From the IMG/VR virus record IMGVR_UViG_3300020183_000011: a stretch of 64,000 bases of DNA; one strand, 5' to 3'. The stretch comes from a virus. The notes under the pieces were generated by a model. It saw only the letters and a program-made list of their open reading frames with translations, ran no database searches and had not been told where the DNA came from. Positions 5,770 through 62,976 of the stretch are shown here, one piece after another. Every line of letters begins with the position of its first letter. Positions within the stretch are counted from its first letter, which is position 1. The position numbers were made by a program, and so were the translations under genes.

Positions 5770-6006
5770 ATGTCAGTATTAGACGACTTAAGAACGGCAA
5801 TGAAAGAGCCAGGCATCAAAGGTGCATTGGCCCAACAACTACATGACATCACAGAACAATACAATGATGGCATCCTTACAGAAGCTGAATTTAAAGACTT
5901 GGTAGAACAGATTGCTGATGTCCAAGCTAACGATGAGCTTGCAGGAGATGAGGTAACTTCAAGATGGGTCGTAAATATAACTAAAGTGATTCTCTCGGCC
6001 GTATAA
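5770..6006 (+). CDS. Hypothetical acidic protein
   Basis: 78-aa ORF with SD (GAAGG) in an operon. Confidence 0.7.
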   Translation: MSVLDDLRTAMKEPGIKGALAQQLHDITEQYNDGILTEAEFKDLVEQIADVQANDELAGDEVTSRWVVNITKVILSAV

Positions 6007-6009
6007 ATA
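6002..6009 (+). promoter_or_regulatory. Late promoter
   Basis: TATAAATA. Confidence 0.8.
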
Positions 6010-6038
6010 ATAGTAATACCTTATATAGATGGAATAAA

Positions 6039-7712
6039 ATGAAGAACTATAGACAGCTTATCAAAGAACTGCCTTCCAAGACGCTTATAATGTCTGTTGG
6101 AAGCTTTAACCCGCCTACTCTCCAAAGCGAGATGGCTTTCAAGCTAGTCGAGAAGCTAGTTGAGACTCATAATGCTGACCATGTCATATACGTGACAGAG
6201 GAAGCAAACAACCTCCCAGTAGACAGAAAGATACACTTCCTTGATCTCATGTTCAATAAGTTAAACTTTCGTCCATTGTCAGAGGAGAAGCTAGTATCAG
6301 AGATCGGTAAGTTAAAGTCAAGGTATAAGAACGTCATCGTAGTTACTTCAGAAGACAAGTCTAAGCTATACGAGTCAATGCAAGTGGTATCCACAGGATA
6401 CCCTGACGTAGAAACACCTAAGCTCCGTTCAATGGTTACCAAAGGTGACTATCAAACATTTAAGAAAAACCTCCCGTCCTCAGTAAGAGACATCGATGCA
6501 AGACGCATGATGAACGAAATGAGACAAGCTCAAGGGCTTGAGTTCATCAAGGAAGACGTTAAGTTCTCTGTAGACATGTTAAGAGACAAGTACTTTAAAG
6601 GTGAGATCTACCACATCGGTGACATCGTTGAGTCTGCTGGACAACAATATGAAATCATGGACCGTGGATCAAACTACCTAGTGGTCGTCAATAACACAGG
6701 TGACTTATCACGTAAATGGGTAAAAGACGTGACTCTAGTCGAAGCATGCTGGAAAGGCTATAAAGCAAAAGGCCTCAAGAAAAAGGGCAACAAGATGGTG
6801 CCTAACTGTGTACCTGAGGAAGTCAAAGAAGACACAGACCCACAAGTATCCTATAAAGGATACACTACAAAGAACATGCATCACAGCGCTGACTTAGCTA
6901 AGACATTCAAGCTCGCTTCAGCAGACGCTAAGGATCCAATAGCTATGCTTAATGCTATCAAGACTACAGACACATACTTAGAGCTACATAACGATAGAGG
7001 TGATAATCCTACACTCGACCAGCTCAAGACATGGAAACATGCACACATCAAAGCTAAAGAAGCCTTACAAAAGATCGGTCACTTTGATGCACACCAAGAA
7101 CACTGGCTACAAAGCTCAGAAGCTCTAGACAAGATGTTGATACCTCATGCTTCGAAGTTAAGAGAAGAGTTAGACATCGGTAAGCATAGTAATCAAAACA
7201 TCGAGCGTTCTGTAACCATGTTCCAAAACTTCATGAAGATGGGTAAAAAAGAACCTGGCTTCATCAAAGACCCTAAATCAGGCGACTTAGCTAAACCTAT
7301 AGAGCCAAACGTTAGTCAACAGATAGATGACTTAGAGCCAAATTGGCCAAGACATGTACAGACAAAAGTTGGTCATACGTTAGCTACGCGAGACCACCTT
7401 CGCAGACAAAAAGTGCAATACGCTACAGAATCTACAAACATATTGGTAGGTGACATGATGGATGAGGACTTTGCTGTTAAGTTTTCTGAAAGTCATGGCG
7501 GAGAAGTAGGAGACGGTATAGGAGATGAAGACATAACGAAAGTTAAGTCGATACCACCACACCTTGTACCTAAAAAAGAATTCGGTGATGTTTCTAAACA
7601 AAAGGGTAAAGGGTTCTCTGCATTGTTTAATGGCAAAGAGAACGTGGACTTTGACTTTCAAACATTTAAAAACTATAGGTTGCAAAGAGAACAAGGAAAA
7701 AAGAATAAATAG
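6039..7712 (+). CDS. Multidomain protein with a degenerate cytidylyltransferase-like N-terminal domain
   Basis: VGSFNPPT (His of HxGH lost); ACWKGY...KMVPNCV module; N-terminus MKNYRQLIKE. Confidence 0.65.
   Translation: MKNYRQLIKELPSKTLIMSVGSFNPPTLQSEMAFKLVEKLVETHNADHVIYVTEEANNLPVDRKIHFLDLMFNKLNFRPLSEEKLVSEIGKLKSRYKNVIVVTSEDKSKLYESMQVVSTGYPDVETPKLRSMVTKGDYQTFKKNLPSSVRDIDARRMMNEMRQAQGLEFIKEDVKFSVDMLRDKYFKGEIYHIGDIVESAGQQYEIMDRGSNYLVVVNNTGDLSRKWVKDVTLVEACWKGYKAKGLKKKGNKMVPNCVPEEVKEDTDPQVSYKGYTTKNMHHSADLAKTFKLASADAKDPIAMLNAIKTTDTYLELHNDRGDNPTLDQLKTWKHAHIKAKEALQKIGHFDAHQEHWLQSSEALDKMLIPHASKLREELDIGKHSNQNIERSVTMFQNFMKMGKKEPGFIKDPKSGDLAKPIEPNVSQQIDDLEPNWPRHVQTKVGHTLATRDHLRRQKVQYATESTNILVGDMMDEDFAVKFSESHGGEVGDGIGDEDITKVKSIPPHLVPKKEFGDVSKQKGKGFSALFNGKENVDFDFQTFKNYRLQREQGKKNK
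7704..7711 (+). promoter_or_regulatory. Late promoter variant
   Basis: AATAAATA 4 nt before ATG 7716. Confidence 0.6.
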
Positions 7713-13159: not shown

Positions 13160-13737
13160 TGTCGCAAGTAATAGATAACATAATAGCTTACAAAGTACTC
13201 ACCATGTTGGTTAAACCCTTCAGGGAGACTGATGCCTATAGATTGGGCATCATCGATGCAAAAGGAAAAAATCTCATAAAGCCTTCTGTTCTTTCCTCAC
13301 AGGAAGAAAAGAACTCTTACACGTTCCTACATCGATTAGTCTTTAACATGAAAAAGATAATCAACAAACTGCCGGGTGGAGAAAGTAAATTAAAGAGTCT
13401 AGCTGCGGCTTTCTTTTTAATCAAAGAATACTATGAAAATAATACTCGTTCTACATCGATGATGGAGGAAAAGTATAATAAACTAATAGAGTCTAATGCG
13501 ATACTAGCAGAAGAAACTATTATCATAGAGAAGTACATGAAAGACATAGATGAAGATGGTGGTGCGGGTGGCGTTTCTGGAGGAGGTGGAGCTAGCGCTG
13601 CTCCAGTTGCAAACGTAACAGGCTCGATGGTATCTACAGACATCCCATTACCTAAAAAGAAAGATTTAGAAAAATACAAGAAGACGAATCAAGCTGGTGT
13701 TGTAGCTATGACTCGTCGTAACAATAAGGTGTTATAA
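13159..13737 (+). CDS. Conserved T4-like hypothetical protein
   Basis: PF.ETDAY.LGIID.KG ... YT.LHRLVFN.K. Confidence 0.75.
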   Translation: MSQVIDNIIAYKVLTMLVKPFRETDAYRLGIIDAKGKNLIKPSVLSSQEEKNSYTFLHRLVFNMKKIINKLPGGESKLKSLAAAFFLIKEYYENNTRSTSMMEEKYNKLIESNAILAEETIIIEKYMKDIDEDGGAGGVSGGGGASAAPVANVTGSMVSTDIPLPKKKDLEKYKKTNQAGVVAMTRRNNKVL

Positions 13738-13738
13738 T

Positions 13739-14344
13739 ATGTGGTTATTGAGCTTATTACCAGATAGTTTACTCTATGGATTTATCCTATCTGTCATGGG
13801 TATCGGAGCAGCACTCTTTATATTTGGTACGTTTACAGTATTCCTGCCTCTAGTTAAAGGTTGGGGTATGTTGATGAGAACGATCGGTACATTACTATTG
13901 ATAGGTAGCGTATACTTATATGGTGGTTATGGTACAGAGATGAAGTGGAGAGCTGAAGCCGCTAAACTAAAAGCAGATATGGATCGTAAGGTCGCATTAT
14001 CTGAAAAGAATTCAAAACAAGTAGTCACAAAATATATTGAAAAAGTAAAGGTAGTTAAGGAGAAAGGTAATGTCATTATTAAAGAAGTCCCTAAATATAT
14101 CACTAAAGATGCTGACGCTAACTGCGTTGTGCCTAAGTCTTTTGTCTTGCTCCACGATTCTGCCGCAAAAAATGAAGTTCCCGACTCCACCCAAGGAGTT
14201 GATGGAGCCGCCAGCGGAACTAAACTCTCTACCATCGGAGAAACAATAACGATCAACTACAATAACTATCATCAGTTATCAGAAAGATTGAAAGCGTTAC
14301 AAGACTGGGTTAGTTCACAAGAAAGAATCTATAATGGCAAATGA
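13739..14344 (+). CDS. Membrane protein, Rz/i-spanin-like
   Basis: N-terminal TM helices, coiled coil, VVTKY..KVKVVKEKG..IIKEVP.Y.....D..C..P..F..LHD.AA. Confidence 0.6.
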   Translation: MWLLSLLPDSLLYGFILSVMGIGAALFIFGTFTVFLPLVKGWGMLMRTIGTLLLIGSVYLYGGYGTEMKWRAEAAKLKADMDRKVALSEKNSKQVVTKYIEKVKVVKEKGNVIIKEVPKYITKDADANCVVPKSFVLLHDSAAKNEVPDSTQGVDGAASGTKLSTIGETITINYNNYHQLSERLKALQDWVSSQERIYNGK

Positions 14345-22359: not shown

Positions 22360-22505
22360 TGGCAACAAAATTATTTGAATGCACTAACTGTGAGAGTCAT
22401 GGTAAGATTACCGTAAAGACTAATGATGTCACGGTAGAGGACATAGTATTTTGTCCTGTATGTGGTGCAGAGATATTTGACGAAGAAGACGACTACGAAG
22501 AATGA
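22359..22505 (+). CDS. Small zinc-ribbon protein with acidic tail (48 aa, below ORF-track cutoff)
   Basis: MATKLFECTNC...FCPVCGAEIFDEEDDYEE; start overlaps the nrdB stop. Confidence 0.8.
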   Translation: MATKLFECTNCESHGKITVKTNDVTVEDIVFCPVCGAEIFDEEDDYEE

Positions 22506-22933
22506 CATGGACCTACAAGGGCGAACCAGTAGAAGAGATCGATGAGAAGTATACAGGATTCGTTTACATCATAACTAACTTAGTTACTGGTAAAGCATAC
22601 ATCGGTAAGAAGTTATCAAAGTTTAGTAAGACATCAGTGAAGACCGTTACGCTTAAGAATGGTACAAAGAAAAAGAAAAAGATTCGTAGCAAGATAAATT
22701 CAGATTGGAAGACCTATTGGTCTTCAAGTAAAGAAATACAAGACGATGTCAAAGCATTGGGTGAAGATAAGTTCAAACGGGAAATACTCATGTTTTGTTT
22801 GTCTAAGGGAACGGCCTCATATTTTGAGGCCAAGTACCAAATGCAGAATGAAGTATTAGAGCACCCTGATATGTGGTATAATGGGATCATAAATTGTAGA
22901 GTACATAGGAGTCATATAAAGTATGAAGATTAG
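22502..22933 (+). CDS. GIY-YIG endonuclease
   Basis: GFVYIITN..TGKAYIGKK, Y.SSS, F.REIL. Confidence 0.88.
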   Translation: MTWTYKGEPVEEIDEKYTGFVYIITNLVTGKAYIGKKLSKFSKTSVKTVTLKNGTKKKKKIRSKINSDWKTYWSSSKEIQDDVKALGEDKFKREILMFCLSKGTASYFEAKYQMQNEVLEHPDMWYNGIINCRVHRSHIKYED

Positions 22934-24212: not shown

Positions 24213-24542
24213 ATGGATCAAATAACGATAGACGAATCAGCTGCTAATAAGATTAAAACTCTCTTAGCTGACGAGGAAAACAAAGATTTATTGCTACGCA
24301 TATTCGTGTCTGGAGGCGGGTGCTCCGGATTTCAATACGGGTTCACGTTTGATGAATGTCAAAATGAAGACGACTTTGTCATAGAACAATATGGTATTAA
24401 ACTATTAGTAGACGCCATGAGCATGCAGTATTTAACAGGTGCAGAGATAGGTTATAAAACATCTTTAATGGGAGAACAATTTGAGATAAAGAACCCAAAT
24501 GCTACAAGTAAATGTGGATGCGGTTCATCATTCTCAGCATAA
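24213..24542 (+). CDS. erpA: A-type Fe-S carrier ErpA/IscA
   Basis: [11 protein letters not shown]...NPNA...CGCGSSF. Confidence 0.92.
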
Positions 24543-24543
24543 T

Positions 24544-24951
24544 ATGGCTTATTCAGATAAAGTTTTAGATCACTATGAAAACCCGAGAAATGTAGGAAGC
24601 CTTGATAAAGCAGATCCAAATGTAGGAACAGGGATGGTGGGTGCACCTGCTTGCGGTGACGTCATGAAATTACAAATTCAAGTAGGAGAAGATGGTGTTA
24701 TCGAAGATGCAAAGTTTAAAACTTATGGTTGCGGTTCTGCTATTGCCAGTTCTAGTCTTGTTACAGAATGGCTCAAGGGCAAAACACTTGACGAGGCAAT
24801 TGCAATCAAGAATTCAGATATTGCGGAAGAATTAGCTTTACCTCCTGTAAAAATTCACTGTTCAGTTTTAGCTGAAGATGCTATTAAAGCAGCTATCGCT
24901 GATCTTCAAAATAAACAAGTAAAAGCAGCCAAGTGTGTCTGCAAAGTATGA
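24544..24951 (+). CDS. iscU: Fe-S scaffold IscU
   Basis: MAYSDKVLDHYENPRNVG, GAPACGDVM, GCGSAIASSS, LPPVKIHCS. Confidence 0.96.
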   Translation: MAYSDKVLDHYENPRNVGSLDKADPNVGTGMVGAPACGDVMKLQIQVGEDGVIEDAKFKTYGCGSAIASSSLVTEWLKGKTLDEAIAIKNSDIAEELALPPVKIHCSVLAEDAIKAAIADLQNKQVKAAKCVCKV

Positions 24952-25967
24952 ATACAGTAATGTTAATCTCAGCGCTTTCATTAAGCGCAATCGCAGCATT
25001 TTACTCGATCGCTGGACTAGCTGCCATATTCGCTGCAGCTGTGGTGCCTATCATCATCATGGGAGGCATCTTAGAAGTATCTAAGTTGGTCGTCGCGTCA
25101 TGGTTATACCAGAACTGGGATGAAGTCCCATTCTCATTCAAAGCATACTTTACTTCTGCTATCGTTATCCTCATGATGTTAACATCTATGGGTATCTTTG
25201 GCTTCTTATCAAAGGCACACTTAGACCAAGCAGTTCCAGCTGGAGATATTACAGCTCAGGTCCAGATCTTTGATGACAAGATCAAGACTGAAAGAGAGAA
25301 CATTGAAGCAGCTCGTAAAGCATTAAAACAAATGGACGCTCAGGTAGACGAGAAGCTTGCTCGTACTACAGACGATAAAGGAACAGAACGTGCAGTACAG
25401 ATCCGTAGAGCTCAATCATCTGAACGTAAGAAACTACAGAACGAGATCACTGTAGCTCAGGCATCTATAGTTAAACTACAAGCTGAGCGAGCTCCTGTCG
25501 CATCTCAAGCTCGTAAGGTCGAGGCTGAAGTTGGTCCGGTTAAGTATATCGCAGCTTTAATCTATGGAGATACCTTAGACCAGAACATGCTGGAAAAAGC
25601 TGTCCGTTGGGTCATCATCATGATCGTCTTGGTGTTTGATCCGCTTGCAGTTCTTATGCTAGTGGCAGTAAACTGGTCTTTAAAAAAAAGACAACCTGAA
25701 GTAGAGCCGGAAGAACTTCCTGAGGATCTATCACCTTGGCTGAATTATCCTATTGATTTAAAGAAACCAAAAAGAAAACCCCGTAAACGTAAGTGGCTTG
25801 AACCTGATCCTGTACCTCTACCAGAGGAAGCAGAATGGAATGATGGAACACATTATGATCCAGATGAGTATGTCTCCCCTTCAAAGACCATTGAGCAAGA
25901 AGTTGACGAACTTAATCATAAGCCTTTGAATTCATTAGAAAGATTAAATAAAAAATACGGACCCTAA
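24948..25967 (+). CDS. Conserved phage membrane protein with coiled coil
   Basis: Three N-terminal TMs, LEV.K, TS.GIFGFLSKAH, EVGP.KYIA, VFDPLA. Confidence 0.7.
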   Translation: MNTVMLISALSLSAIAAFYSIAGLAAIFAAAVVPIIIMGGILEVSKLVVASWLYQNWDEVPFSFKAYFTSAIVILMMLTSMGIFGFLSKAHLDQAVPAGDITAQVQIFDDKIKTERENIEAARKALKQMDAQVDEKLARTTDDKGTERAVQIRRAQSSERKKLQNEITVAQASIVKLQAERAPVASQARKVEAEVGPVKYIAALIYGDTLDQNMLEKAVRWVIIMIVLVFDPLAVLMLVAVNWSLKKRQPEVEPEELPEDLSPWLNYPIDLKKPKRKPRKRKWLEPDPVPLPEEAEWNDGTHYDPDEYVSPSKTIEQEVDELNHKPLNSLERLNKKYGP

Positions 25968-25972
25968 ACTAT

Positions 25973-25980
25973 TATAAATA
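25973..25980 (+). promoter_or_regulatory. Late promoter for the curli-like operon
   Basis: TATAAATA 4 nt before ATG 25985. Confidence 0.85.
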
Positions 25981-25984
25981 GTAC

Positions 25985-26263
25985 ATGGGCGATATTTTTA
26001 AACTAATTGCTGATGTAGGATTCCCAATAGCCGGAGCATGTGCTGCTGGATATTTTGTGTTTCTTACCGTTAAATTTATCCTTGATGGGGTGACAGGCTC
26101 AGTAAAGGGTATGTCTAACATCATTAAAGCTTTGGATAGACGGGTAGCAGCAATGAATCACGACGTTATTCGCATAGATACTAAGGTGTCTCATGCATTA
26201 GGTATACCACCAGATCTAGATAGGATCGCGAGGGCCGAACAGTCAGACGCTAGGAGAGACTAG
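25985..26263 (+). CDS. Small single-TM membrane protein (paralog 1)
   Basis: GFPI.....GYFV TM plus coiled coil (LD.R...MN.D.IR). Confidence 0.75.
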   Translation: MGDIFKLIADVGFPIAGACAAGYFVFLTVKFILDGVTGSVKGMSNIIKALDRRVAAMNHDVIRIDTKVSHALGIPPDLDRIARAEQSDARRD

Positions 26264-26532
26264 TGGAAGATATAGCTGACTTAATAAGCAAGTATGGGTT
26301 TCCCATCGTTGCAGCAGGCGGATTAGGATACTTCGTCTACTATATATGGAAATGGGTAACTGAAGAGATAGACCCTGTAATAGGTGAATCAAATAAAGTT
26401 TTAATTGAACTGATCGATCGTATCCGCATGTTGGATAATGACTTGATCAGGCTCAACCAAAAAGTGAATGTCATTTTGTCTTTAAGAGAGAGGGAAGAAA
26501 ATGAAGTTCACGATAAGGATACTAAGTCTTAG
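26263..26532 (+). CDS. Small single-TM membrane protein (paralog 2)
   Basis: YGFPIVAA.GLGYFVYY, LIDRIRMLDNDLIRL; GTG start. Confidence 0.75.
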   Translation: MEDIADLISKYGFPIVAAGGLGYFVYYIWKWVTEEIDPVIGESNKVLIELIDRIRMLDNDLIRLNQKVNVILSLREREENEVHDKDTKS

Positions 26533-26953
26533 TATTTTACTGATAGGTTGTGTCGCTCAGGCCCAACCACTCCCTGATTATACGTTCAAGAATCCATCCT
26601 TTAATGGAAATGGATACAGTAGCCACATATTGACTATTGAAAATCAAGAACGAACACGAAAAGATAATATCAAGAAAGAGATCCAAGCTGCATTAGATAA
26701 AGCAAAAAACGATGCTAACAACACTAATGTAGCTAAGTTCCTTAACAACCTTGAAAGCCGTATATATGCACAGATTAGTCAAAACCTAGCAACAGAGATG
26801 TTTGCAGATGGTGGTGCAACAAGTGGTACATTAAATTTCGAAGGTAACATCATAAATTGGAACAGGACTGGTACTGAGATCACAATGAACGTGACTGACT
26901 ATCTAGGCAGCACAACGACTGTTGTTATACCACTAGGACAGTGGCAATTCTAA
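26501..26953 (+). CDS. csgF: Curli assembly component CsgF
   Basis: Signal peptide then YTFKNPSFNG; C-terminal G.TT...IP; adjacent to csgG. Confidence 0.85.
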   Translation: MKFTIRILSLSILLIGCVAQAQPLPDYTFKNPSFNGNGYSSHILTIENQERTRKDNIKKEIQAALDKAKNDANNTNVAKFLNNLESRIYAQISQNLATEMFADGGATSGTLNFEGNIINWNRTGTEITMNVTDYLGSTTTVVIPLGQWQF

Positions 26954-26954
26954 A

Positions 26955-27755
26955 ATGTATAAACTACTAATTTTATTATCGCTGATGTTTTTAGCTGGTT
27001 GTGCAACTACTCGCGTAGTCACTACACCAGAAAAGCCTGTAGAGGTGAAGAGTATCATGCAAAAAGAGTTTGATACTATACCTCCACCTGCTGGTAGACC
27101 GATTATCGTAGCTGTATATACGTTTATTGATAAGACTGGTCAAAGAAGACCTGCTGCTAATTTTGCAAACCTTAGTTCAGCGGTAACACAAGGAGCCGAG
27201 GCTTTCTTAATAAAGGCTTTACAAGATGTAGGTAAAGGTGTTTGGTTTGAAGTCGTCGAAAGGGTAGGTATCGATAGCTTGACTAAAGAGAGACAACTAA
27301 TTCGTCAGATGCGTGAGGCGTATGATGGTCCTAAAGCTAAACCGTTAGGTCCAATGCTTTATGCAGGTGTCATCGTAGAAGGTGGTATAACTGGATATGA
27401 TACAAGCGTTAAGAGTGGTGGTAGTGCTGCACGTATGTTAGGCATTGGACCACAGACACAATACAGCGAAGACATAGTAACAGTAAGTCTTAGAGTTATT
27501 AGTGTAAACTCTGGTAAAGTTTTAGCTGCTGTAAATATACAGAAAACTATTTACAGCGCTAGTGATAGCATGGCAGTATTAAAGTTTATTAAAGATGGAA
27601 CACAGGCATTTGAGATAGAAAGTGGGTTAACCATAAATGAGCCTGGAACTCAAGCAGTAAAAGCTGCTATAGAGAGTGCAGTAGTAGAGTTAATAAAAGA
27701 AGGTAGCAAGAAAGGTATCTGGGAATTCTCCTATGAACCCTTGCAACCACAATAA
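26955..27755 (+). CDS. csgG: Curli secretion channel lipoprotein CsgG
   Basis: Lipobox LAG-C; VAVY.F.DKTGQR, SSAVTQGA...LIKAL, WF.VVER..ID.L.KERQLIR, EGGI.GYD. Confidence 0.93.
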   Translation: MYKLLILLSLMFLAGCATTRVVTTPEKPVEVKSIMQKEFDTIPPPAGRPIIVAVYTFIDKTGQRRPAANFANLSSAVTQGAEAFLIKALQDVGKGVWFEVVERVGIDSLTKERQLIRQMREAYDGPKAKPLGPMLYAGVIVEGGITGYDTSVKSGGSAARMLGIGPQTQYSEDIVTVSLRVISVNSGKVLAAVNIQKTIYSASDSMAVLKFIKDGTQAFEIESGLTINEPGTQAVKAAIESAVVELIKEGSKKGIWEFSYEPLQPQ

Positions 27756-27761
27756 GGAAAG

Positions 27762-28550
27762 ATGATGATAAAATCATTAAAACTTTTTATCATGATTTTA
27801 TTATTAAGTTTCAATGCATGGGCTGCAGACAATAGTATCTACATTGATCAAAGTGGTGATAACAGCACCATCGATGTGATACAAACTGGTGCAGGTAACG
27901 TCATACGTGGCATACAAGGAGTTGGTACAGGTAACACAACACCAGCAAAGATGTATGGTAACAACAGTGTAATCGATATCCAACAAATTGGTAGTACTAA
28001 CACATTAAACTTAGGTTTAAACGTAAGTACAGCAGTTGGTCGTGCGTATGGTATCGACTTAACATACTATGTAACTGGTAATAATGGTACAGCAACCATC
28101 AACAGTAACAATGCTGGTTCAGGTACAAGTGGAAGTAACTTCATAGATGTGCGTCAAACTGGTAACAGTGCAAGCATTAACTTGAACGTATTAGGTAGTA
28201 AGAATGACTTTACTGCTGTTACATCAGGTGGAGCTTCTAACAGTATCACTGCTACTATTAATGCAAACGAGACAGTAAGTAATATTAGTATGACTGGTGG
28301 TGCAAGTAATACATTTACTGGTACTCTTAGCAGCAACAAAGGTCAAGTTAACGTAACTACTGTTGGCGCAAGTAATGGTGTGACACTATCGCAAACTGGT
28401 ACTGCTGGTATTAATGGTCATGAATTTACACTAAACCTAACTGGATCTAGTAACACGTTTGGTGTTACTCAATCTGGAACTATTGACACAACAGTTAATG
28501 TATTGAGTTCTGGAAGCGGTAATACATGGAACATTACTACTGGAAATTAA
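27762..28550 (+). CDS. Curlin-like (CsgA/CsgB-type) repeat protein
   Basis: Signal peptide; DNSIYIDQSGDN, QTGAGN, QIGSTN, QTGNS repeats; G/N/S/T rich. Confidence 0.75.
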   Translation: MMIKSLKLFIMILLLSFNAWAADNSIYIDQSGDNSTIDVIQTGAGNVIRGIQGVGTGNTTPAKMYGNNSVIDIQQIGSTNTLNLGLNVSTAVGRAYGIDLTYYVTGNNGTATINSNNAGSGTSGSNFIDVRQTGNSASINLNVLGSKNDFTAVTSGGASNSITATINANETVSNISMTGGASNTFTGTLSSNKGQVNVTTVGASNGVTLSQTGTAGINGHEFTLNLTGSSNTFGVTQSGTIDTTVNVLSSGSGNTWNITTGN

Positions 28551-29644
28551 TATGTATCATATTGCTCTGGCCGCAACTAACACTTGCGGCCGTGGGTAGT
28601 ATAACTGAACTTCAAAACACCCCCGCAAACATCCAACGTAAAGGCTCTAGTCTTACCGGAAATAAAGGTATAGGTGTAGAGATGAACGACGTCGTCAAGA
28701 CGGCTCAAGGCAAAACAGGTATAACTTTTGCTGACGACACAAGAGTACAAGTAAGTGAAAACAGTAAGCTAGTCATCGATGACTTTGTGTATGACCCTAA
28801 TAGCAAGAAGGGTGGTAAGCTTGCAATGAAGGTCGCTTTAGGCACAGTACGTTATGCATCAGGTGCAGTCGCACATAATAACCCAGACAACGTTAAGATC
28901 AATACACCAAGCGCTACTATCGCAGTCAGAGGTACAGACTTTACTGCTACAGTAGACGAGTTAGGTAGGAGCACCATAATCTTATTACCAAGTTGTCCTA
29001 AAGATTATAAAGACGTCATACTTGATTGTAAGACTGGTAAAATCGAAGTACTTACAGACGAAGGCAAAGTTGTATTAGATCAACCGTTTCAAGCCACGAG
29101 GGTTGATAACAGAGATAGTAAGCCGTTTAAACCAGTTACTTTAAACTTAGATGAAACTCAAATAAGTAACATACTCATATTAAGTCCACCAAAAGAGCTT
29201 AGAGAGTCTGATGAAGATAAATCTAAGAAGAGATCTGAAGTAAAAGGTGCACTAGATGTAGACTTCTTAGCGGAGAACAAACTCATAAACGTGTTAGAAA
29301 AACAGGCAGCTGAGACATATAAGAGCAAGCTAGATCGAAACTTCTTAGATAATGATTTATTAGCAAACATACTAGACATCATCAATGCACAATTAGCAGC
29401 TCAATTAGATCTATTAGGTAAGACTAAGTCTGGATTATTACCAGATTATATACCAACTTCTGGTGTATTAGTTGAAGTCGATGATCTACAAGTCACATTA
29501 TGTCGTGAAGGTAACGGAGATGTACAATGCATCACGACTCCAAAAAATCAAAATACAACCATAACACAAACTCAAGGACCAGTAGAGATCAAGAATAGGA
29601 TTAACAATGGTGGTAACACGGTTATTAACGCTACTCAAAATTAG
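28526..29644 (+). CDS. FecR-domain periplasmic protein
   Basis: Signal peptide; D.V.T...I.F.D.T.V...ENS.L.ID.F.YDP, G.VRYASG, I.TPSATIAVRGTDF. Confidence 0.88.
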   Translation: MEHYYWKLICIILLWPQLTLAAVGSITELQNTPANIQRKGSSLTGNKGIGVEMNDVVKTAQGKTGITFADDTRVQVSENSKLVIDDFVYDPNSKKGGKLAMKVALGTVRYASGAVAHNNPDNVKINTPSATIAVRGTDFTATVDELGRSTIILLPSCPKDYKDVILDCKTGKIEVLTDEGKVVLDQPFQATRVDNRDSKPFKPVTLNLDETQISNILILSPPKELRESDEDKSKKRSEVKGALDVDFLAENKLINVLEKQAAETYKSKLDRNFLDNDLLANILDIINAQLAAQLDLLGKTKSGLLPDYIPTSGVLVEVDDLQVTLCREGNGDVQCITTPKNQNTTITQTQGPVEIKNRINNGGNTVINATQN

Positions 29645-31130
29645 TCTATTGTTATTTTGCTTAGGTGCAAAAGCTGAAACTTTAGGTATAGGCTTTGAAA
29701 ATAATAGCATAGACGGGTGGACAGTTTCTGGAACATTAGCCGCTACGAAGAGTACATGGAGTTCTACAGGAGTGGGTGTAGCTCTTACCACAGGAGTTAC
29801 AAACTATAGTCCAGGTGGAGGTAAGACGTGGAACATAAACCCATATGGATCTTATATGGCTAGTATACAAGCTGGATCTTCAAACACTGTTACTTTTGAT
29901 AGTGCTATCAGCAGCTTAGGGTTGACTGGCACTGAAAATACTGCTATTAAACAATACCTGACATATCAATCACAAAACGGTGGAGGTGGAAACCCTACTC
30001 CAACTAATTCTAGCTGGATGAAAAAAACTTTTACGTTACAAACTGGTGTAACATACACGATTGCTTGGCAATACTTGAGTACAGACTACACACCATATAA
30101 TGACGGTAGTATCATGACACTAACACACACTAGTAATGCTAATATCATGCCAACACTAAACAACCTTGCACAAAGATATGCATTGTTAGGTTTTACAAAT
30201 CCTGGAACCGGTAACTATGCTACAGGCAGTTATGGAGCTACAGGATGGCAAGTAGCTCAGTTTACTGTTCCAGAAAATGGTAGTTATACTTTAGGCTTTG
30301 CATCGTTTAACTTAGGTGACACTGCATTGAGTCCTATCTTATTCATAGACGTCATGCAAGGAACTACTACACTCAATGGACAAACGTTTACACCAGTAAC
30401 ACCAAATGCTGGTAGCTCTGCTCCACCTCCTCCAGCTCCAGGCCCATCTTACAGTTCTGGAATAACACCAGCACAAACGACTACAAAGAACAATGCAAAT
30501 ACTATCAGACAAGGACAACATGGTAACGAGATATACGTTGAACAGTCTGGAAATAACAACACCTTTGATATTAGTCAAGGAGCTACAGTTACGGGTAAAG
30601 CTAGGATAGAACTATATTCTACGGGAGATAATAATACTTTTAACTTGAAACAAGGAAAGAACTCTGATGGCACTACGCCTTTGGCTGATAGTAATAATCA
30701 TTACTTATACTTTAACCTAAACGGTAGCTCAAACAATATCACTACAAGACAAGTGGATGGGACGACTTCAGGATCTGGTCATTTTAATCATTCGACTGTG
30801 GCTGGAAGCAATAACAGTATATTAAACTTACAAACTGGATCTGGTAGCAAGACTTTATTTCAAAGCGTAACTGGTAATAATAACACTGTGTCGACTACTC
30901 AGCAAGATTCTGGTCAACACTACTTAGACCTTAAACTAACTGGTCCTGGTCATAACACGACCATACTTCAGTCTGGTTCAGGTAATCATGCAGCAACCAT
31001 AGACTTAACAAATTCTGGTGGAGCAGCTACATTAAACCTTAATCAGTCAGGATCAACTAATCAAGTTTACAGTATCCAACAAAGTTGTGTTACTGCTGCA
31101 GGTTGCTCAACAAGCATCACACAACCATAG
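29607..31130 (+). CDS. Secreted protein with N-terminal beta-rich domain and C-terminal curlin-like repeats
   Basis: Signal peptide; NEIYVEQSGNNN, QTGSG, QSGSGNH, QSGSTNQ repeats; C-terminal C....C. Confidence 0.72.
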   Translation: MVVTRLLTLLKISLLLFCLGAKAETLGIGFENNSIDGWTVSGTLAATKSTWSSTGVGVALTTGVTNYSPGGGKTWNINPYGSYMASIQAGSSNTVTFDSAISSLGLTGTENTAIKQYLTYQSQNGGGGNPTPTNSSWMKKTFTLQTGVTYTIAWQYLSTDYTPYNDGSIMTLTHTSNANIMPTLNNLAQRYALLGFTNPGTGNYATGSYGATGWQVAQFTVPENGSYTLGFASFNLGDTALSPILFIDVMQGTTTLNGQTFTPVTPNAGSSAPPPPAPGPSYSSGITPAQTTTKNNANTIRQGQHGNEIYVEQSGNNNTFDISQGATVTGKARIELYSTGDNNTFNLKQGKNSDGTTPLADSNNHYLYFNLNGSSNNITTRQVDGTTSGSGHFNHSTVAGSNNSILNLQTGSGSKTLFQSVTGNNNTVSTTQQDSGQHYLDLKLTGPGHNTTILQSGSGNHAATIDLTNSGGAATLNLNQSGSTNQVYSIQQSCVTAAGCSTSITQP

Positions 31131-31137
31131 ATAAATA
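31130..31137 (+). promoter_or_regulatory. Late promoter variant
   Basis: GATAAATA 4 nt before ATG 31142. Confidence 0.65.
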
Positions 31138-31141
31138 ACAA

Positions 31142-31885
31142 ATGAAAAAGTATAAGACTATTTGCATCTCTGACACTCATCTTGGTTCTAAGGATGCTAA
31201 GGCTGATCTACTTAATAATTTCCTTAAACACCATGAATGTGATAATCTGTTCTTAGTAGGAGACATCATAGATGGATGGAAGATACAGCAGAACAAATGG
31301 AAATGGAAGCAAAGCCATACTAATGTTATCCGTAGGATACTAGGTTATGCTAAACGTGGAACTAAGGTTACATATGTGACTGGCAACCATGATGAGTTCC
31401 TTAGACCATTCGTCAATCAGTTTGCTTTAGGTTCTATTACTATATGTAACCAAGCAGAGTATAGAGACACTGATGGAAACCTATTCTTAGTAACACATGG
31501 TGACATGTTTGATGGTATTACAAGAGTTGGTAAATGGATTGGGTTTCTTGGCGATACAGCTTATGATTGTGTATTATGGATCAATACTAAATTTAACTAC
31601 ATAAGACATAGGTTAGGGTTTGGTTATTGGTCATTAAGTAAGTTTCTTAAACATCAAGTAAAGAAAGCGATAGATTTTGTATTCAAATTCGAAGAAAACC
31701 TTGCAGGATACTGTGAACGAAAAAACTTTGATGGAGTTATTTGCGGCCATATCCATACTCCACAGATTAAGACAATCAATGGAATAATCTACATGAATGA
31801 TGGTGACTGGGTAGAATCATGCTCAGCTCTTGTAGAACATGAAGATGGTAAATGGGAAATAATTTATTGGAATGAGATCATATGA
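31142..31885 (+). CDS. plcP: Metallophosphoesterase, PlcP-type phospholipase C (often mis-annotated LpxH)
   Basis: SDTHLG, GDIIDGW, GNHDEFLR, HGD.FD, ICGHIH, YMNDGDWVESCSALVEH; coupled to a GT4 gene. Confidence 0.75.
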   Translation: MKKYKTICISDTHLGSKDAKADLLNNFLKHHECDNLFLVGDIIDGWKIQQNKWKWKQSHTNVIRRILGYAKRGTKVTYVTGNHDEFLRPFVNQFALGSITICNQAEYRDTDGNLFLVTHGDMFDGITRVGKWIGFLGDTAYDCVLWINTKFNYIRHRLGFGYWSLSKFLKHQVKKAIDFVFKFEENLAGYCERKNFDGVICGHIHTPQIKTINGIIYMNDGDWVESCSALVEHEDGKWEIIYWNEII

Positions 31886-32874
31886 AGATATTAATAGTAA
31901 CAGACAATTTAAGAGATCAAGTCAATGGCGTTGTCACTACATACAAAAATATTGAGGATCATGCTGTTTCTGCTGGTCATAGTATTGTTTATCTTGATCC
32001 CGGGAAGTTCCGTCATATTAGCTGTCCTTTTTATCCTGAGGTCAAACTTTCCCTTCCTTCGTTCTTTATCAGTAAGATTAAGAAGATGGGTGCGGATCGT
32101 ATTCACATCGCGACAGAGGGACCGCTAGGACTATTTGCAAAGTTCTACTGTGACGCAAACAAGATACCATACACTACAGCGTATCATACTAAGTTTCCAG
32201 AATTCTTAAAAAAATTATTATGGATACCTACATCTATCACATATAGGTATCTTAAATGGTTTCACAAGTATTCAAAAGCTGTGTTAGTACCGAGTGAATC
32301 GATGAGCATAGAATTGCAATCTAAGGGGTTTGTAAATCTAGTTATATGGACTAGAGGCGTATCAAAAGATCTCATAGAAAAGCGTAAAGACAAAACAAAG
32401 AATATGCCTCCAAAGATTTTGTATGTAGGTCGGGTAAGCAAAGAAAAGAACTTAGAAGACTTATGTAATTTACAAAATATGTATGATATCACTGTAGTCG
32501 GAGACGGGCCTATTTTACCTCAGCTGATCCGCAAATACAGAAAGGTTAACTTTACTGGTTATAAATTTGGAGATGAATTAAAGCAAATATATGTAGAGAA
32601 CGACATATTTGTTTTCCCAAGTCTAACTGATACTTTTGGTATAGTTATCATAGAAGCTTTATGTAATGGATTACCTGTAGCAGCATATAGGGTAACTGGT
32701 CCACAAGATATCATTGAATATGGTGTTACAGGATATCTAAGCATGTATGGCAATGGGTTACAGTCTGCTATAGAAAAATGTAAGTCATTAGATAACGTTA
32801 AAGTACAAGAATTATCTATTAAAACATGGACTTGGAAAAATTGTTTTGATATATTTATCAAAGCTGTTAAATAA
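31882..32874 (+). CDS. GT4 glycosyltransferase, Agt-like glycolipid synthase
   Basis: MKILIVTD....QVNGVV.T, IHIATEGPLG, TAYHTKFPE, W.RGV, YVGRVSKEKN, FPS.TDTFG.V..EA. Confidence 0.85.
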   Translation: MKILIVTDNLRDQVNGVVTTYKNIEDHAVSAGHSIVYLDPGKFRHISCPFYPEVKLSLPSFFISKIKKMGADRIHIATEGPLGLFAKFYCDANKIPYTTAYHTKFPEFLKKLLWIPTSITYRYLKWFHKYSKAVLVPSESMSIELQSKGFVNLVIWTRGVSKDLIEKRKDKTKNMPPKILYVGRVSKEKNLEDLCNLQNMYDITVVGDGPILPQLIRKYRKVNFTGYKFGDELKQIYVENDIFVFPSLTDTFGIVIIEALCNGLPVAAYRVTGPQDIIEYGVTGYLSMYGNGLQSAIEKCKSLDNVKVQELSIKTWTWKNCFDIFIKAVK

Positions 32875-32875
32875 T

Positions 32876-32904
32876 TTTACTTTAATTAACTATAGGAGTA
32901 TAAT
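32876..32904 (+). promoter_or_regulatory. Early/middle-type promoter
   Basis: TTTACT-TTAATT..17 nt-TATAAT; ATG 6 nt later. Confidence 0.8.
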
Positions 32905-32910
32905 GTCAAT

Positions 32911-33546
32911 ATGAGTTTCCTTGTAGCTAACTTGCCTCCAGTACATTGCTATGTTCGTAAGGAGTTCTTATATGATTTTAAATCTGGTCATGGCGAATAT
33001 GAGTCATGTATATGGGTTAGTATCAAGAGCCTTCGTAGTCAAGCATTTAGGATAGAGTCATACTTCCCAAGATACGGAGCTTTATATGATAAGTTGCCGT
33101 TGCATGCTTATGTAAGTAGAACGACTGATCTAGAACCTGAAAAGTTCTTATCACTAGACACTTTACAGATATGGGATTGTTTTAGTTATGACATAGCAGT
33201 CATACAAAAAGCATTCTTAAGGAACTTAAGCTGTAAGGTGTATGCTAAAGATAAACAGTTTCATCATGGTGACTATATGTTTACGGTAGATAATTCAGCT
33301 CCAGACTTAAACATACTAGATACGAGTTACAGTGAAGTTCCAGAAGATCATAAGAGTTTTAACTTTATACAACTAAACAATGGACAGTATGCTGCTCAGC
33401 CGAATAACAGGTGTATATTCTTTGATGCAGCAAGTAATCCAAAAGAGATGTTATTCCCTGATTTTAAAGTCTGCACCAAGAAGTATGTGGTAGAGACTAA
33501 TCCTAAATGGAGACTAGGTGATAGCGATACAGTAACATACGAATAA
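32911..33546 (+). CDS. Conserved phage hypothetical protein
   Basis: ANLPP...VRKEFLYD...GHGE, YGALYDKLP, WDCFSY, HKS.N.I.L.NGQ.AAQPNNR. Confidence 0.75.
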   Translation: MSFLVANLPPVHCYVRKEFLYDFKSGHGEYESCIWVSIKSLRSQAFRIESYFPRYGALYDKLPLHAYVSRTTDLEPEKFLSLDTLQIWDCFSYDIAVIQKAFLRNLSCKVYAKDKQFHHGDYMFTVDNSAPDLNILDTSYSEVPEDHKSFNFIQLNNGQYAAQPNNRCIFFDAASNPKEMLFPDFKVCTKKYVVETNPKWRLGDSDTVTYE

Positions 33547-33549
33547 ATA
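33542..33549 (+). promoter_or_regulatory. Late promoter variant
   Basis: AATAAATA 5 nt before ATG 33555. Confidence 0.6.
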
Positions 33550-33554
33550 AACAT

Positions 33555-35564
33555 ATGAAAAAATTACTTAGCCCATGGTTTGCACTAGTCACCCTATTAG
33601 TTTTAGTAGGCATTAGAGTATCAGATCCATCATTTGTAGAGTCAGTTCGTCTTAGATACTTTGACACGCTGATCACAAGTAAACCTGTAGTACAATCAAA
33701 ACAAGTCCATGTCGTAAACATAGATGATAAGTCTATAGAACACCTTGGGCAATTTCCATTTCCAAGGACCCAATATGCAAATATCATCGAAGATCTTTAC
33801 AGCCGTGGGGCTGGTCTTGTTGTCTTTAATCTGTTTATGCCTGATAGTGATAGGTTTGGAAAAGATGCTGGACTGGCTGATACCCTTACTAGGCATCCTG
33901 TAGTATTACCACAAGTCGCAACATCAGACAAACAAAAACCTGGTGCATTTAGACCGGGAGTATCAGAAATCGGAGGCAAAGCTTCTGATCATGCAGTAAA
34001 CTATCCGGGCATTCAAGCCAATATATCATCATTTAACAGCAAAGCTGCTGGAATAGGAGTCGTAAATGTATTACCTGAAATTGATGGTGTTGTTCGTCGT
34101 ATCCCTATGGTCGTCGCAAGTGATGGCCAATTGTACCCAAGTATCAGTCTTGAAACAATGCGTGTTGCAGTTGGAGACCCAAGTTTCCAAGTCAAGTCAA
34201 ACGCAAACGGGATTGAAGCTGTCAGAATACCTAGCTTCGCCAAGGTCGTCACAGACCCAATGGGTAGAATATGGGTCGATTGGAGTTCCACGCCGATTGA
34301 ACACAGTCTTGTGGGATTACCCAAGTCATTCGATGGAGGTATCGTCATCGTTGGGTTATCGGCACGCGGACTTAACAATCCCGTTGCAACCCCACGAGGA
34401 GCCGTCTATCCTCATTATGTACAAGCTTCAGTTTTAGATACACTAACATCTGGCGCCAACATATCTCGTCCTGATTGGGCAGATGGTGCTGAGATGCTTG
34501 CTATAGTTGTATTATCAATCATCATAATCTTTTTAACGAGGTGGAAATATGCTATTCTTCCTATCATTAGTATTATTGGTTCTATATATTACGCTTCTCG
34601 CTACGTGTTCGCCCATCAAGGTATTCTGTTGGACGGCATTTATCCTATTATTAGCTTGTCTGTTGTCTATGGTCATGCATACACCGTTAAGTTCATTTCT
34701 GAATTAAACCAAAAGCTACAGATCAAGAAACAATTTGGTACATACTTATCGCCAGCAATGGTTGAAAAGTTACAAAAGAACCCAGAGCTATTGAAGCTTG
34801 GTGGTGAGACTAGAGAATTATCAATCATGTTTACAGACGTTCGTGGCTTCACGACTATCTCAGAACATTATGGTAAAGACGTTCAAGGTCTGACTAAGAT
34901 CATGAACAGATACATGACAGCCATGACAGCAAAGATCATTGAAAATAATGGTACACTTGATAAGTATATAGGTGATGCTCAGATGGCTTTTTGGAATGCT
35001 CCTTTAGATGATAAGGATCATGCATTAAATGCAGTTAAGACTGGATTGGAGATGTTAAATGATTTGGATAAATTCAATGAAGAGATCGCTAAAGAAAATA
35101 TACCAGCGTTCGGTATGGGACTTGGTATTAACAGCGGCGACGTGGTTGTTGGGAATATGGGTAGCAGCCAGCGTTTTGATTACACTTGTCTTGGTGATGC
35201 GGTCAATCTTGCTTCCCGTTTAGAAGGACAATCAAAGAACTATGGTGTACGTATCGTATTAGGTACAAAGACCGCAGAGTATGCTAAAGAAGTTTATTCA
35301 GTCGTAGAGATGGATACGATCGCTGTTAAGGGCAAGACCGAAGGAGTTAAGGTATACACGATAGGCGAGACTATTAAACATAAACATGAAGAGTATCTAA
35401 AAGAATACTATCGCGGTAATTGGAAACGTGCTACAGAATGGGCACAAGAACTCATCGATGATAAGAACGTTACTATCAAAGACTACTATCACAAGATGAT
35501 AGAACGAATGGACGAAGGTCTCCCTGCTGAGTGGGACGGTGTATATCGAGCCACAAGCAAGTAA
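33555..35564 (+). CDS. CHASE2-sensor class III adenylate cyclase
   Basis: IDDKSI...GQFPFPR and DGVVRRIP (CHASE2); three TMs; F.DVRGFT, DKYIGDA, DYT.LGDAVNLASRLE (Lys/Asp ATP-specifying residues). Confidence 0.93.
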   Translation: MKKLLSPWFALVTLLVLVGIRVSDPSFVESVRLRYFDTLITSKPVVQSKQVHVVNIDDKSIEHLGQFPFPRTQYANIIEDLYSRGAGLVVFNLFMPDSDRFGKDAGLADTLTRHPVVLPQVATSDKQKPGAFRPGVSEIGGKASDHAVNYPGIQANISSFNSKAAGIGVVNVLPEIDGVVRRIPMVVASDGQLYPSISLETMRVAVGDPSFQVKSNANGIEAVRIPSFAKVVTDPMGRIWVDWSSTPIEHSLVGLPKSFDGGIVIVGLSARGLNNPVATPRGAVYPHYVQASVLDTLTSGANISRPDWADGAEMLAIVVLSIIIIFLTRWKYAILPIISIIGSIYYASRYVFAHQGILLDGIYPIISLSVVYGHAYTVKFISELNQKLQIKKQFGTYLSPAMVEKLQKNPELLKLGGETRELSIMFTDVRGFTTISEHYGKDVQGLTKIMNRYMTAMTAKIIENNGTLDKYIGDAQMAFWNAPLDDKDHALNAVKTGLEMLNDLDKFNEEIAKENIPAFGMGLGINSGDVVVGNMGSSQRFDYTCLGDAVNLASRLEGQSKNYGVRIVLGTKTAEYAKEVYSVVEMDTIAVKGKTEGVKVYTIGETIKHKHEEYLKEYYRGNWKRATEWAQELIDDKNVTIKDYYHKMIERMDEGLPAEWDGVYRATSK

Positions 35565-36280
35565 TGAAGTTCTTAATTTTACTTTTATTAGCATTCAACT
35601 GCTATGCTCAAGACATAACTGCTAACTCATGGGTGGTGACAGATGAAGATGGAAAGGTGATCGCGGGGCAAAATATTGCAGAAGTCAGGTCAATAGCATC
35701 TATCACAAAACTAGTCACAGCGATGACCATATTAAACAGCGGAGAGAACATAGAAGCTCCAGTCAAGACTAAAGCTTTTGGTATGATAACACGCCATCAG
35801 CTGATAGACATGGCCATAGTAAAGTCAAATAACCAAACTGCAGACTTATTATGTCAGTTATATGTAGGTGGATATGACAGGTGTATAGCTGACATGAATC
35901 ACTTGTTATTTAAGCTTAACCTACTCAACACCATCGTCTATGATGCTACTGGTCTTGATAGACGTAACAAATCCACAGCCATGGAGCTAACACAGTTAGT
36001 CCAGGAAGCTGCAAAATATCCAGAATTAGTCAACGCATCTCAACAGGCAAAGATCAAGATTAAGACCAAGAAGCGTTTCTGGGTCTTTAAGAACACTAAC
36101 CCTCTCATAGGTAAACGTCAGGACATACTGATCTCCAAGACAGGCTATACAAGGCCTGCCGGAGGCTGCCTGGCGATGCTTATGTCCACAGATAAGGGCC
36201 AGAGATCAGTCGTGGTTTTAGGCTCCCAGAACACTCATACACGCATCCCCGAAGCTGAATTCTTAGCTGAAAATTACTAA
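35564..36280 (+). CDS. Serine DD-peptidase S11 (PbpG/DacA-like)
   Basis: Signal peptide; ASITK, SNN, KTG motifs. Confidence 0.9.
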   Translation: MKFLILLLLAFNCYAQDITANSWVVTDEDGKVIAGQNIAEVRSIASITKLVTAMTILNSGENIEAPVKTKAFGMITRHQLIDMAIVKSNNQTADLLCQLYVGGYDRCIADMNHLLFKLNLLNTIVYDATGLDRRNKSTAMELTQLVQEAAKYPELVNASQQAKIKIKTKKRFWVFKNTNPLIGKRQDILISKTGYTRPAGGCLAMLMSTDKGQRSVVVLGSQNTHTRIPEAEFLAENY

Positions 36281-59708: not shown

Positions 59709-60200
59709 ATGCCTACTCAGCAAATAGATTTTAGTACAATCCAAAATATATATCTAAATGGTAATGAAATTTTTGAATTACAATTAGATAATCAAGTATT
59801 ATGGAAAAAGTATCTATTTAATGGTACGACAACTTTTACCACTTCATATAATACATCAGTATCAAGTACGACTAGTGCTATAACAAATTATGCTACAAAT
59901 TATACAACATCAGTTACAACTTCTAATCTGACAGCTTATTCACAAACTACGTCTAATACTACATCGATCGCTACTATTGTTGGGCAGGACAAAAAACTCG
60001 GACCAATATATGCAAATACTGCTTATTTGACGTATTTTATTACTTCATACAATGAAACTACTTCATATACTACTTCATGGTCTACAAGTAACACAACTAG
60101 TAACACGACTTCATATTTGACAAATTATCTAGCTTCTACTTCTAACCCAACAAGTTTAAATTATAGTACGTATTTGATAACATATATTGGTAAAGTTTAA
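59709..60200 (+). CDS. Thr/Ser/Tyr/Asn-rich repeat protein
   Basis: TTSY/TTSN 4-residue periodicity. Confidence 0.7.
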   Translation: MPTQQIDFSTIQNIYLNGNEIFELQLDNQVLWKKYLFNGTTTFTTSYNTSVSSTTSAITNYATNYTTSVTTSNLTAYSQTTSNTTSIATIVGQDKKLGPIYANTAYLTYFITSYNETTSYTTSWSTSNTTSNTTSYLTNYLASTSNPTSLNYSTYLITYIGKV

Positions 60201-62968: not shown

Positions 62969-62976
62969 TATAAATA
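62969..62976 (+). promoter_or_regulatory. Late promoter
   Basis: TATAAATA 4 nt before ATG 62981. Confidence 0.85.

Follow-up and report, generated by a model that had tools for sequence, protein, structure and literature searches.

A phage-borne curli-type secretion module with a FecR-domain protein and a CHASE2 adenylate cyclase: gene content, relatives, and a possible signaling role

Curli gene clusters carried by phages are abundant in aquatic viromes, and they give the infected host a surface structure that is absent from its own genome. The stretch of viral DNA analyzed here, 64,000 nucleotides of the IMG/VR record IMGVR_UViG_3300020183_000011 (hereafter, the window), holds one such cluster, in which genes for CsgF, CsgG, and two curlin-repeat proteins (curlin-1 and curlin-2) are accompanied by genes for a secreted FecR-domain protein and a CHASE2 adenylate cyclase. 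This cluster is a divergent instance of a phage gene cluster that has already been published (PMC9599517; mSystems 2022). Its gene content, domain integrity, export signals, gene order, co-occurrence in relatives, and cellular counterparts are established in what follows. From the sequences, we consider it an even call that the module specifies a functional type VIII secretion system (T8SS) of the alphaproteobacterial type, which would export and anchor curlins on the infected cell and which would be genetically joined to an envelope-sensing adenylate cyclase. Signaling from the FecR-domain protein to the CHASE2 domain is plausible by analogy with cellular systems, and the comparative evidence can reasonably be said to strengthen this hypothesis without proving it.

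Phage csgF and csgG were discussed in two papers that deemed csgA/B to be missing and that mentioned neither FecR nor the cyclase (PMC7029224, Zaragoza-Solas 2020; PMC9004378, Buchholz 2022). An earlier note on the window, according to which these genes have been discussed mainly without curlins, is true of both papers but is outdated since PMC9599517 reports curlins, FecR, and the cyclase together, as HK(1-2)-CsgF-CsgG-CsgA/B-FecR-CsgA/B-AC (HK, histidine kinase; AC, adenylate cyclase) in HTVC023P-type podophages and in pelagimyophages. The same study mapped the global distribution of the cluster, found it expressed in ocean metatranscriptomes, put phage curli clusters at ~0.1% of assembled viral proteins, presented phylogenies that point to the Alphaproteobacteria, and described the known hosts of such phages as lacking curli (PMC9599517). 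FecR was read there as an iron regulator, CHASE2 went unmentioned, and FecR, HK, and AC were stated to lie outside bacterial T8SS operons. Our literature search found no later functional study of the phage cluster.

New relative to PMC9599517 are the CHASE2 identity of the cyclase, the FecR+CHASE2 cassette, an island carrying the module in Caulobacteraceae, the description of two small membrane proteins encoded ahead of csgF (TM1 and TM2) as coiled-coil proteins, and the apparently swappable heads of curlin-2. Together, the CHASE2 sensor, the recurrence of FecR with CHASE2, and the heads turn a vague "regulatory FecR and AC" into a testable model, namely, surface display of adhesins coupled to cyclic AMP (cAMP) signaling. 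The cultured phages that carry the module are HTVC008M, on SAR11, and Melnitz, on OM43.

Genes and proteins of the module

The window belongs to a T4-like myovirus and codes for a DnaB-like helicase, a primase, NrdA/B, a baseplate hub and tail lysozyme, and a tail tube cap. Between positions 25985 and 36280 all genes lie on the + strand, and neighbors overlap or stand at most 36 nt apart, in the order TM1, TM2, CsgF, CsgG, curlin-1, FecR protein, curlin-2, a three-gene insert, CHASE2 cyclase, and an S11 carboxypeptidase-like gene. Every gene that the earlier note had named within 25973–35564 is present there on this strand. The genes that carry the argument are the following.

26501–26953, + strand: CsgF, with signal peptide, N-terminal motif, and C-terminal domain (PF10614, 3e-16)
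26955–27755, + strand: CsgG outer-membrane lipoprotein pore (PF03783, 2.7e-46; NCBIfam CsgG, 3e-50)
27762–28550, + strand: curlin-1, a secreted, Asn/Gly/Thr-rich protein of 262 aa with ~10 strand-turn units (profile matches)
28526–29644, + strand: secreted FecR-domain protein (PF04773, 7e-10)
29607–31130, + strand: curlin-2, 507 aa, with signal peptide, head (~24–275), Pro-rich linker, and tail (~285–507) (alignment and AlphaFold2 model)
33555–35564, + strand: CHASE2 class III adenylate cyclase with 1+3 transmembrane (TM) segments (PF05226, 4e-38; PF00211, 2e-20)

Signal sequences stand at the N-termini of all five of CsgF, CsgG, curlin-1, curlin-2, and the FecR protein. CsgG carries a conserved L-x-G-C lipobox, and the N-terminal motif of CsgF, F-K-N-P-S-F-N-G-N-G, is conserved (56 homologues) and is one that we take to correspond to the pore-inserting motif of E. 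coli CsgF. By family searches, no open reading frame (ORF) of the block matches CsgE, CsgC, or CsgD, which are accessories of the gammaproteobacterial type; this agrees with the alphaproteobacterial type of T8SS described in PMC9599517.

The Pfam Curlin_rpt model remains sub-threshold on the two window curlins (0.04 for curlin-1 and 0.02 for curlin-2), while orthologues of curlin-2 score above its cut-off. In an alignment of 17 curlin-1 orthologues, nearly all invariant columns are Q, G, or N, spaced by ~11/22 residues, and the profile built from these 17 sequences has two matches only, 8c50 (3e-10), a curlin-repeat protein of solved structure, and CsgA of E. coli (8enq, 1.6e-3). The tail of curlin-2 also has invariant Q/G/N columns together with a terminal Cys pair, and AlphaFold2 (AF2) models it as regular strand pairs at a predicted local distance difference test score (pLDDT) of 80–94. 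The heads are unalignable across lineages and range from none at all, in proteins of ~200 aa, to multi-domain, in a protein of 778 aa. In at least four lineages they are PA14 domains, with matches to sugar-binding modules found in Lap-type adhesins and in the ice-binding adhesin of Marinomonas. For the head of the window protein, metagenomes contain over 1,100 relatives; almost all of them belong to curlin proteins, and the longer forms carry discoidin or PA14/GLEYA modules too. By these alignments, curlin-2 is a conserved curlin tail bearing a swappable, putatively lectin-type head. Because both curlins have Sec signal peptides and their genes stand far from the virion genes, the earlier suggestion that they are exported, rather than fibers of the virion, is supported as a prediction. 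Structure-atlas matches to choice-of-anchor-L/PEP-CTERM surface proteins are leads only; another such lead, to the head being carried on an autotransporter, was not borne out in the 120 best sequence relatives.

The FecR protein begins with a 22-residue signal peptide that is followed by the FecR domain. Its AF2 model (mean pLDDT 76.7) comprises a FecR/PupR-type domain (residues 24–215), a disordered linker, a helix, and a C-terminal six-strand module (314–371). The domain model matches the cell-surface-signaling domain of PupR (6ovk_R; Z 16.0, root-mean-square deviation 3.0 over 136 residues), a structure determined with the outer-membrane partner bound, as well as 4m0n (Z 14.8). Neither domain search nor the AF2 model revealed a cytoplasmic anti-sigma domain, and none of the block's ORFs belongs to the sigma-70/FecI or TonB-receptor/FecA families. 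The C-terminal module is modeled as strand pairs with a period of ~22 residues and has no clear structural match. Two candidate identities for it were rejected: a curlin-like nature, rejected at the level of profiles because hhalign aligned the signal peptides only (3.8% probability), and the "cell surface anchoring domain" of 5ix9, which aligned instead to FecR residues 20–116. The resemblance of these residues to 5ix9 has a Z of 7.2 and 25% identity over 73 residues.

Hydrophobic segments of the cyclase lie at residues 4–22, 309–329, 333–351, and 355–375, with CHASE2 between the first and the remaining three. Across 23 homologues D428, K470, D474, and R555 never vary, and the window protein also has T544 and N551. 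Lys470 stands four residues ahead of the second Asp, a place held by Glu in the guanylate cyclase Cya2. Presumably, D428 and D474 form the metal Asp pair of class III cyclases, N551 and R555 serve the transition state, and K470 and T544 specify adenine. With these residues in place the cyclase domain reads as intact and cAMP synthesis is predicted, as the earlier note had it for a CHASE2-3TM adenylate cyclase. Matches of the cyclase to PycC (2e-26) are generic to class III cyclases.

Relatives in viruses and bacteria

A CsgG-based scan of viral contigs yielded 67 loci, and co-occurrence was counted over those with enough room downstream of csgG, that is, at least 1 kb for FecR and at least 4.5 kb or at least 9 kb for the cyclase. 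The order CsgF-CsgG-curlin-1-FecR-curlin-2 is universal in the surveyed viral loci. All 42 loci with at least 1 kb encode FecR, all 31 with room for it have a curlin-repeat ORF as the next gene after FecR, and the cyclase is found in 25 of the 27 loci with at least 4.5 kb (18 of 19 with at least 9 kb). The earlier note would have counted a failure of FecR and cyclase to co-occur with csgFG in relatives as its own refutation; the genes do co-occur there, in conserved order. The insertions at these loci differ in size and all stand between curlin-2 and the cyclase; FecR and cyclase are 1.9 to 6.2 kb apart, and one locus (L010) has the cyclase in inverted orientation. Melnitz and HTVC008M carry the same eight genes without interruption, with the cyclase right after curlin-2; the distance of ~2.4 kb previously given between operon and cyclase is correct for the window, but the gap is a three-gene insert that both of these phages lack at this spot.

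At the nucleotide level, the complete block matches none of the 50,697 phage records searched. The same FecR protein occurs, as an exact match, on a 151.9 kb contig, and metagenomes contain more than 5,000 FecR clusters at 90% identity. As a side observation on the carriers, FecR homologues (proteins P0062, P0079, and P0102) lie on contigs of 328–339 kb, and CheckV completeness is only 30–35% for two contigs of 114–123 kb (L054 and L063); some phages with the module may be far larger.

Bacterial counterparts were sought with the FecR profile on species-representative genomes, with one peptide pattern, and then with hidden Markov models built from the phage proteins; counts are of the matches listed. 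Among these, a FecR gene stands directly upstream of a CHASE2 cyclase gene, and no curli genes accompany it, in Sulfurimonas, Sulfurovum, and two other Campylobacterota. The Sulfurimonas locus, TPR-FecR-CHASE2 cyclase, agrees with a described Campylobacterota cluster of TPR, FecR, CHASE2 AC, and phosphodiesterase (PMC9239204). A Burkholderia operon pairs LysM-FecR with a CHASE2 histidine kinase (PMC5192318), and CyaD1/CyaD2/CyaK with NsrA in Sinorhizobium meliloti form a further CHASE2 system for comparison (PMC13001267), in which NsrA is a putative FecR-domain protein. FecR+CHASE2 is a recurrent cellular cassette. CHASE2 cyclases at ~40% identity occur in 164/401 alphaproteobacterial genomes; CsgG was found in the 1.5 kb flanks of 0/29 inspected.

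The complete module was found, among the matches listed, in two Caulobacteraceae species known from metagenome-assembled genomes (L074 and L075), as csgF-csgG-curlin-curlin-FecR-CHASE2 cyclase; the contigs also bear ordinary chromosomal genes and have a GC content of 54–58%. Because the two loci align only over the stretch that begins with csgF and closes with the cyclase, at 87% identity, and their flanks differ, the six genes appear to behave as a mobile island in this family. The module was found in 1 of the 301 sampled genomes of the order. In cells too, the whole module is a unit, which corrects the statement of PMC9599517 on bacterial T8SS operons. At L074 a PycTM-family effector (13527–14120; PF18967, 9e-25; PADLOC PycTM, 1e-17) lies 440 nt downstream of the cyclase. 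L075 lacks PycTM and has an SpdA/CpdA-like cyclic-nucleotide phosphodiesterase upstream of csgF (5776–6636), an enzyme with no homologue in the window or the viral loci. When the cyclase tree is rooted on Campylobacterota, one phage lineage joins the bacterial copy (support 98/96), and the remaining 26 phage sequences are sister to this group, a topology compatible with transfer between bacterium and phage in either direction.

A possible link between curlin export and cAMP signaling

In the mechanism that we favor, the CsgG lipoprotein pore and CsgF would form an outer-membrane channel, and curlin-1 would be a fiber or nucleator subunit. The tail of curlin-2 would join the fiber and so display a swappable lectin/adhesin-type head at the cell surface. 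The secreted FecR-domain protein would act as a periplasmic adaptor. It would most probably bind the pore from the periplasmic side, or bind the cargo, and would modulate the cyclase through its CHASE2 domain, such that cytoplasmic cAMP would report the state of secretion, fiber, or adhesion. The FecR–CsgG and FecR–CHASE2 contacts, the direction of the signal, and a host protein as the target of cAMP are what we infer, and the benefit to the phage would lie in adhesion/aggregation, lysis timing, or superinfection control. FecR is the hinge of this model, because it is found with the T8SS even where the cyclase is missing and with CHASE2 even where there is no T8SS.

Several observations weigh against such a mechanism. 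FecR is kept in the absence of the cyclase at one surveyed locus (L041) and, often, in podophages (PMC9599517), and its main role may thus lie within the T8SS rather than in signaling. FecR occurs within the 1.5 kb flanks of only 4 of the 29 inspected alphaproteobacterial CHASE2 cyclases. In S. meliloti, the FecR-domain protein SMc02177 is dispensable for signal perception (PMC5498481), and Melnitz-infected cultures do not clump (PMC9004378). A protein binding cyclic nucleotide monophosphates (cNMPs) or a PycTM effector was not found in two complete (Melnitz and HTVC008M) and three partial phage relatives, so that any cAMP receptor would have to be a host protein. Finally, the head of the window curlin-2 is poorly modeled (AF2 pLDDT ~30), and Foldseek matches to this model are meaningless.

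The readiness of FecR to remain with the T8SS when the cyclase is gone is also what one would expect if two independent cassettes merely travel together, one a T8SS for adhesion or aggregation with FecR as a structural stand-in for CsgE, the other a CHASE2 cyclase manipulating host cAMP in response to an unrelated periplasmic cue. The presence of FecR in 42/42 loci, the placement of every insertion between curlin-2 and the cyclase, the inverted cyclase of L010, and the absence of a CsgE homologue from the block all fit this arrangement. It must, however, be squared with the recurrence of FecR+CHASE2 adjacency in bacteria that have no T8SS (including PMC9239204), with the retention of the cyclase beside the module across deep phage divergence (38–47% identity), and with an island in Caulobacteraceae that conserves exactly csgF through the cyclase. 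We regard independent cassettes as possible, if somewhat unlikely.

Our preferred mechanism, of curlin export joined to an envelope-sensing cyclase, can be extended to a contact sensor, in which curlin-anchored lectin heads would bind neighboring cells, particles, or incoming phages, FecR would pass occupancy or secretion state on from the CsgG pore to the cyclase, and the resulting cAMP would control when the cell lyses or whether superinfecting phages are excluded; the mobile module of cells would feed a PycTM-type effector as an envelope-triggered anti-phage system. In this full form the extension is unlikely. A related and still less probable proposal makes surveillance of the envelope, or control of superinfection, the very purpose of the module: the surface curlin/lectin and FecR would detect attack, the cyclase would make a nucleotide signal, to which the lysis machinery or an effector in the membrane would respond, in an abortive-infection-like manner in cells and as control of lysis timing or exclusion in phages. 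The PycTM-family gene just downstream of the L074 cyclase, the mobility of the Caulobacteraceae island, and a weak holin-family match of the TM1/TM2 pair (phrog_4898, 4e-5) would suit it. However, the PycTM neighbor is known from this single locus and is missing from L075, no PycTM or cNMP-binding gene is among the block's ORFs or in the phage relatives searched, the specificity residues of the cyclase are of the purine type (K/T), and its PycC matches are those of any class III cyclase.

A further alternative dispenses with fiber export and has CsgG/CsgF set the time of lysis in the new role of a gated pore, secretin, or pinholin, as was put forward from synteny and modeling (PMC9004378). The lack of a CsgE gate would be in keeping with such a pore. 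That proposal, however, took csgA/B as absent, whereas two conserved curlin genes with signal peptides accompany every module, and CsgF retains a fiber-nucleating architecture; we consider it very improbable. Hardly credible is a nutrient/iron-uptake channel with FecR as an iron-citrate regulator, one reading in PMC9599517, for which the name FecR and an open CsgG pore lacking CsgE might speak, since the protein consists of a signal peptide and periplasmic domain with no anti-sigma domain, the block encodes no FecI/FecA homologue, and cellular FecR relatives pair with CHASE2 sensors, not with extracytoplasmic function (ECF) sigma factors.

Neighboring genes and comparison with known systems

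The remaining features of the block surround or interrupt the module.

25973–25980, + strand: TATAAATA octamer, T4 late-promoter-like, 4 nt upstream of the TM1 ATG
25985–26263, + strand: TM1, 92 aa, single-pass membrane protein with coiled coil, "HK" in PMC9599517 (phrog_18771, 3e-33)
26263–26532, + strand: TM2, 89 aa, a paralogue of TM1 (phrog_18771, 2.5e-35; alignment)
31142–31885, + strand: LpxH/PlcP-like metallophosphoesterase, in the insert and outside the module
31882–32874, + strand: GT4 glycosyltransferase, in the insert and overlapping the phosphoesterase gene
32911–33546, + strand: phrog_3704 "ferredoxin" protein, in the insert
35531–36280, + strand: short S11 D-Ala-D-Ala carboxypeptidase-like protein (PF00768, 2.8e-32), overlapping the end of the cyclase gene

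The label of histidine kinase given to TM1 and TM2 in PMC9599517 does not fit these proteins of 89–92 aa, in which neither HisKA nor HATPase is matched even at E values up to 10; profile matches are to coiled coils only. In several phage lineages the pair lies ~10 kb off on the opposite strand or is divergent from csgF, and the bacterial copy of the module in Caulobacteraceae has no counterparts. Since they are displaced or inverted in many relatives and absent from the bacterial copy, TM1 and TM2 are accessory and not a fixed part of the module. The two paralogous single-TM proteins of the earlier note therefore stand as genes and as paralogues, but not as constant members.

Nor is the three-gene insert (31142–33546) part of the module, being found at the same spot in few relatives only (L016, L024, L036, and L066). 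Its phosphoesterase was considered as a cAMP phosphodiesterase and rejected as LpxH-like. At no fewer than six viral loci the cyclase is followed by a homologue of the S11 carboxypeptidase-like gene, a frequent neighbor rather than an established member.

The description of the operon as late had its sole basis in the TATAAATA octamer and is not upheld: the octamer also stands ahead of nrdA, and its 12 copies in the window against 8.1 expected are within chance (not significant). Scans for sigma-70 promoters and terminators did no better than on shuffled sequence. At 1669–1676, 25973–25980, and 62969–62976 the octamer stands exactly 4 nt before an ATG, a spacing too short for a normal leader if these are T4-type late promoters.

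Just upstream of the module lie genes for IscA-like and NifU/IscU-like Fe-S cluster assembly proteins (24213–24951), homologues of which sit between curlin-2 and the cyclase at locus L076. They are followed by a gene (24933–25967) immediately upstream of TM1 for a 344-aa multi-TM protein with a weak DUF4407 match, which has homologues near the module in most viral loci, at varying distance. Elsewhere in the window, a SegE-like GIY-YIG homing endonuclease gene (22502–22933) stands between nrdB and a gene for an NAD-dependent sugar epimerase/dehydratase, and GC content, ~38% for the window, falls to 27% at 60001–62000.

Among known systems, the csgBAC-csgDEFG curli of E. coli and Salmonella share with the phage module the CsgG lipoprotein pore, the N-terminal motif of CsgF, and the Q-x-G-x-x-N repeats. 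The phage module differs in lacking CsgE, CsgC, and CsgD, in its longer subunits (262 aa, and 507 aa with the head), in the addition of a FecR protein and a cyclase, and in being encoded by a virus. With the FecR/PupR anti-sigma regulators the phage protein shares the periplasmic FecR (CCSSD) fold; those regulators have an anti-sigma domain, a TM helix, and FecI/FecA partners, all of which the phage protein lacks. Pycsar consists of a cyclase and a cNMP-activated effector (PycTM/PycTIR), and here PycTM stands only beside the bacterial L074 copy. In the Caulobacter holdfast anchor, HfaA/HfaB/HfaD, a pore of the CsgG family secretes amyloid-like proteins, and these anchor a different surface structure. 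The window CsgG matches HfaB weakly (6e-7), far below the HfaB cut-off, and the parallel is one of analogy.

Closer parallels are found in the bacterial FecR+CHASE2 cassettes, which share with the phage a secreted FecR-domain protein and a CHASE2 transmembrane sensor. These cassettes are without T8SS genes, whereas in the phage a curlin gene stands between FecR and the cyclase and all lie within the secretion operon. The Caulobacteraceae module is 39–45% identical to the window proteins and differs in having both curlins ahead of FecR, no TM1/TM2, and a GC content of about 50%. Relative to the cluster of PMC9599517, the window adds the PlcP-like/GT4/phrog_3704 cassette before AC, and its curlin-2 head is not PA14. 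HTVC008M (gp011-019) and Melnitz (gp97-104) have the same genes in the same order, at 37–47% protein identity to the window.

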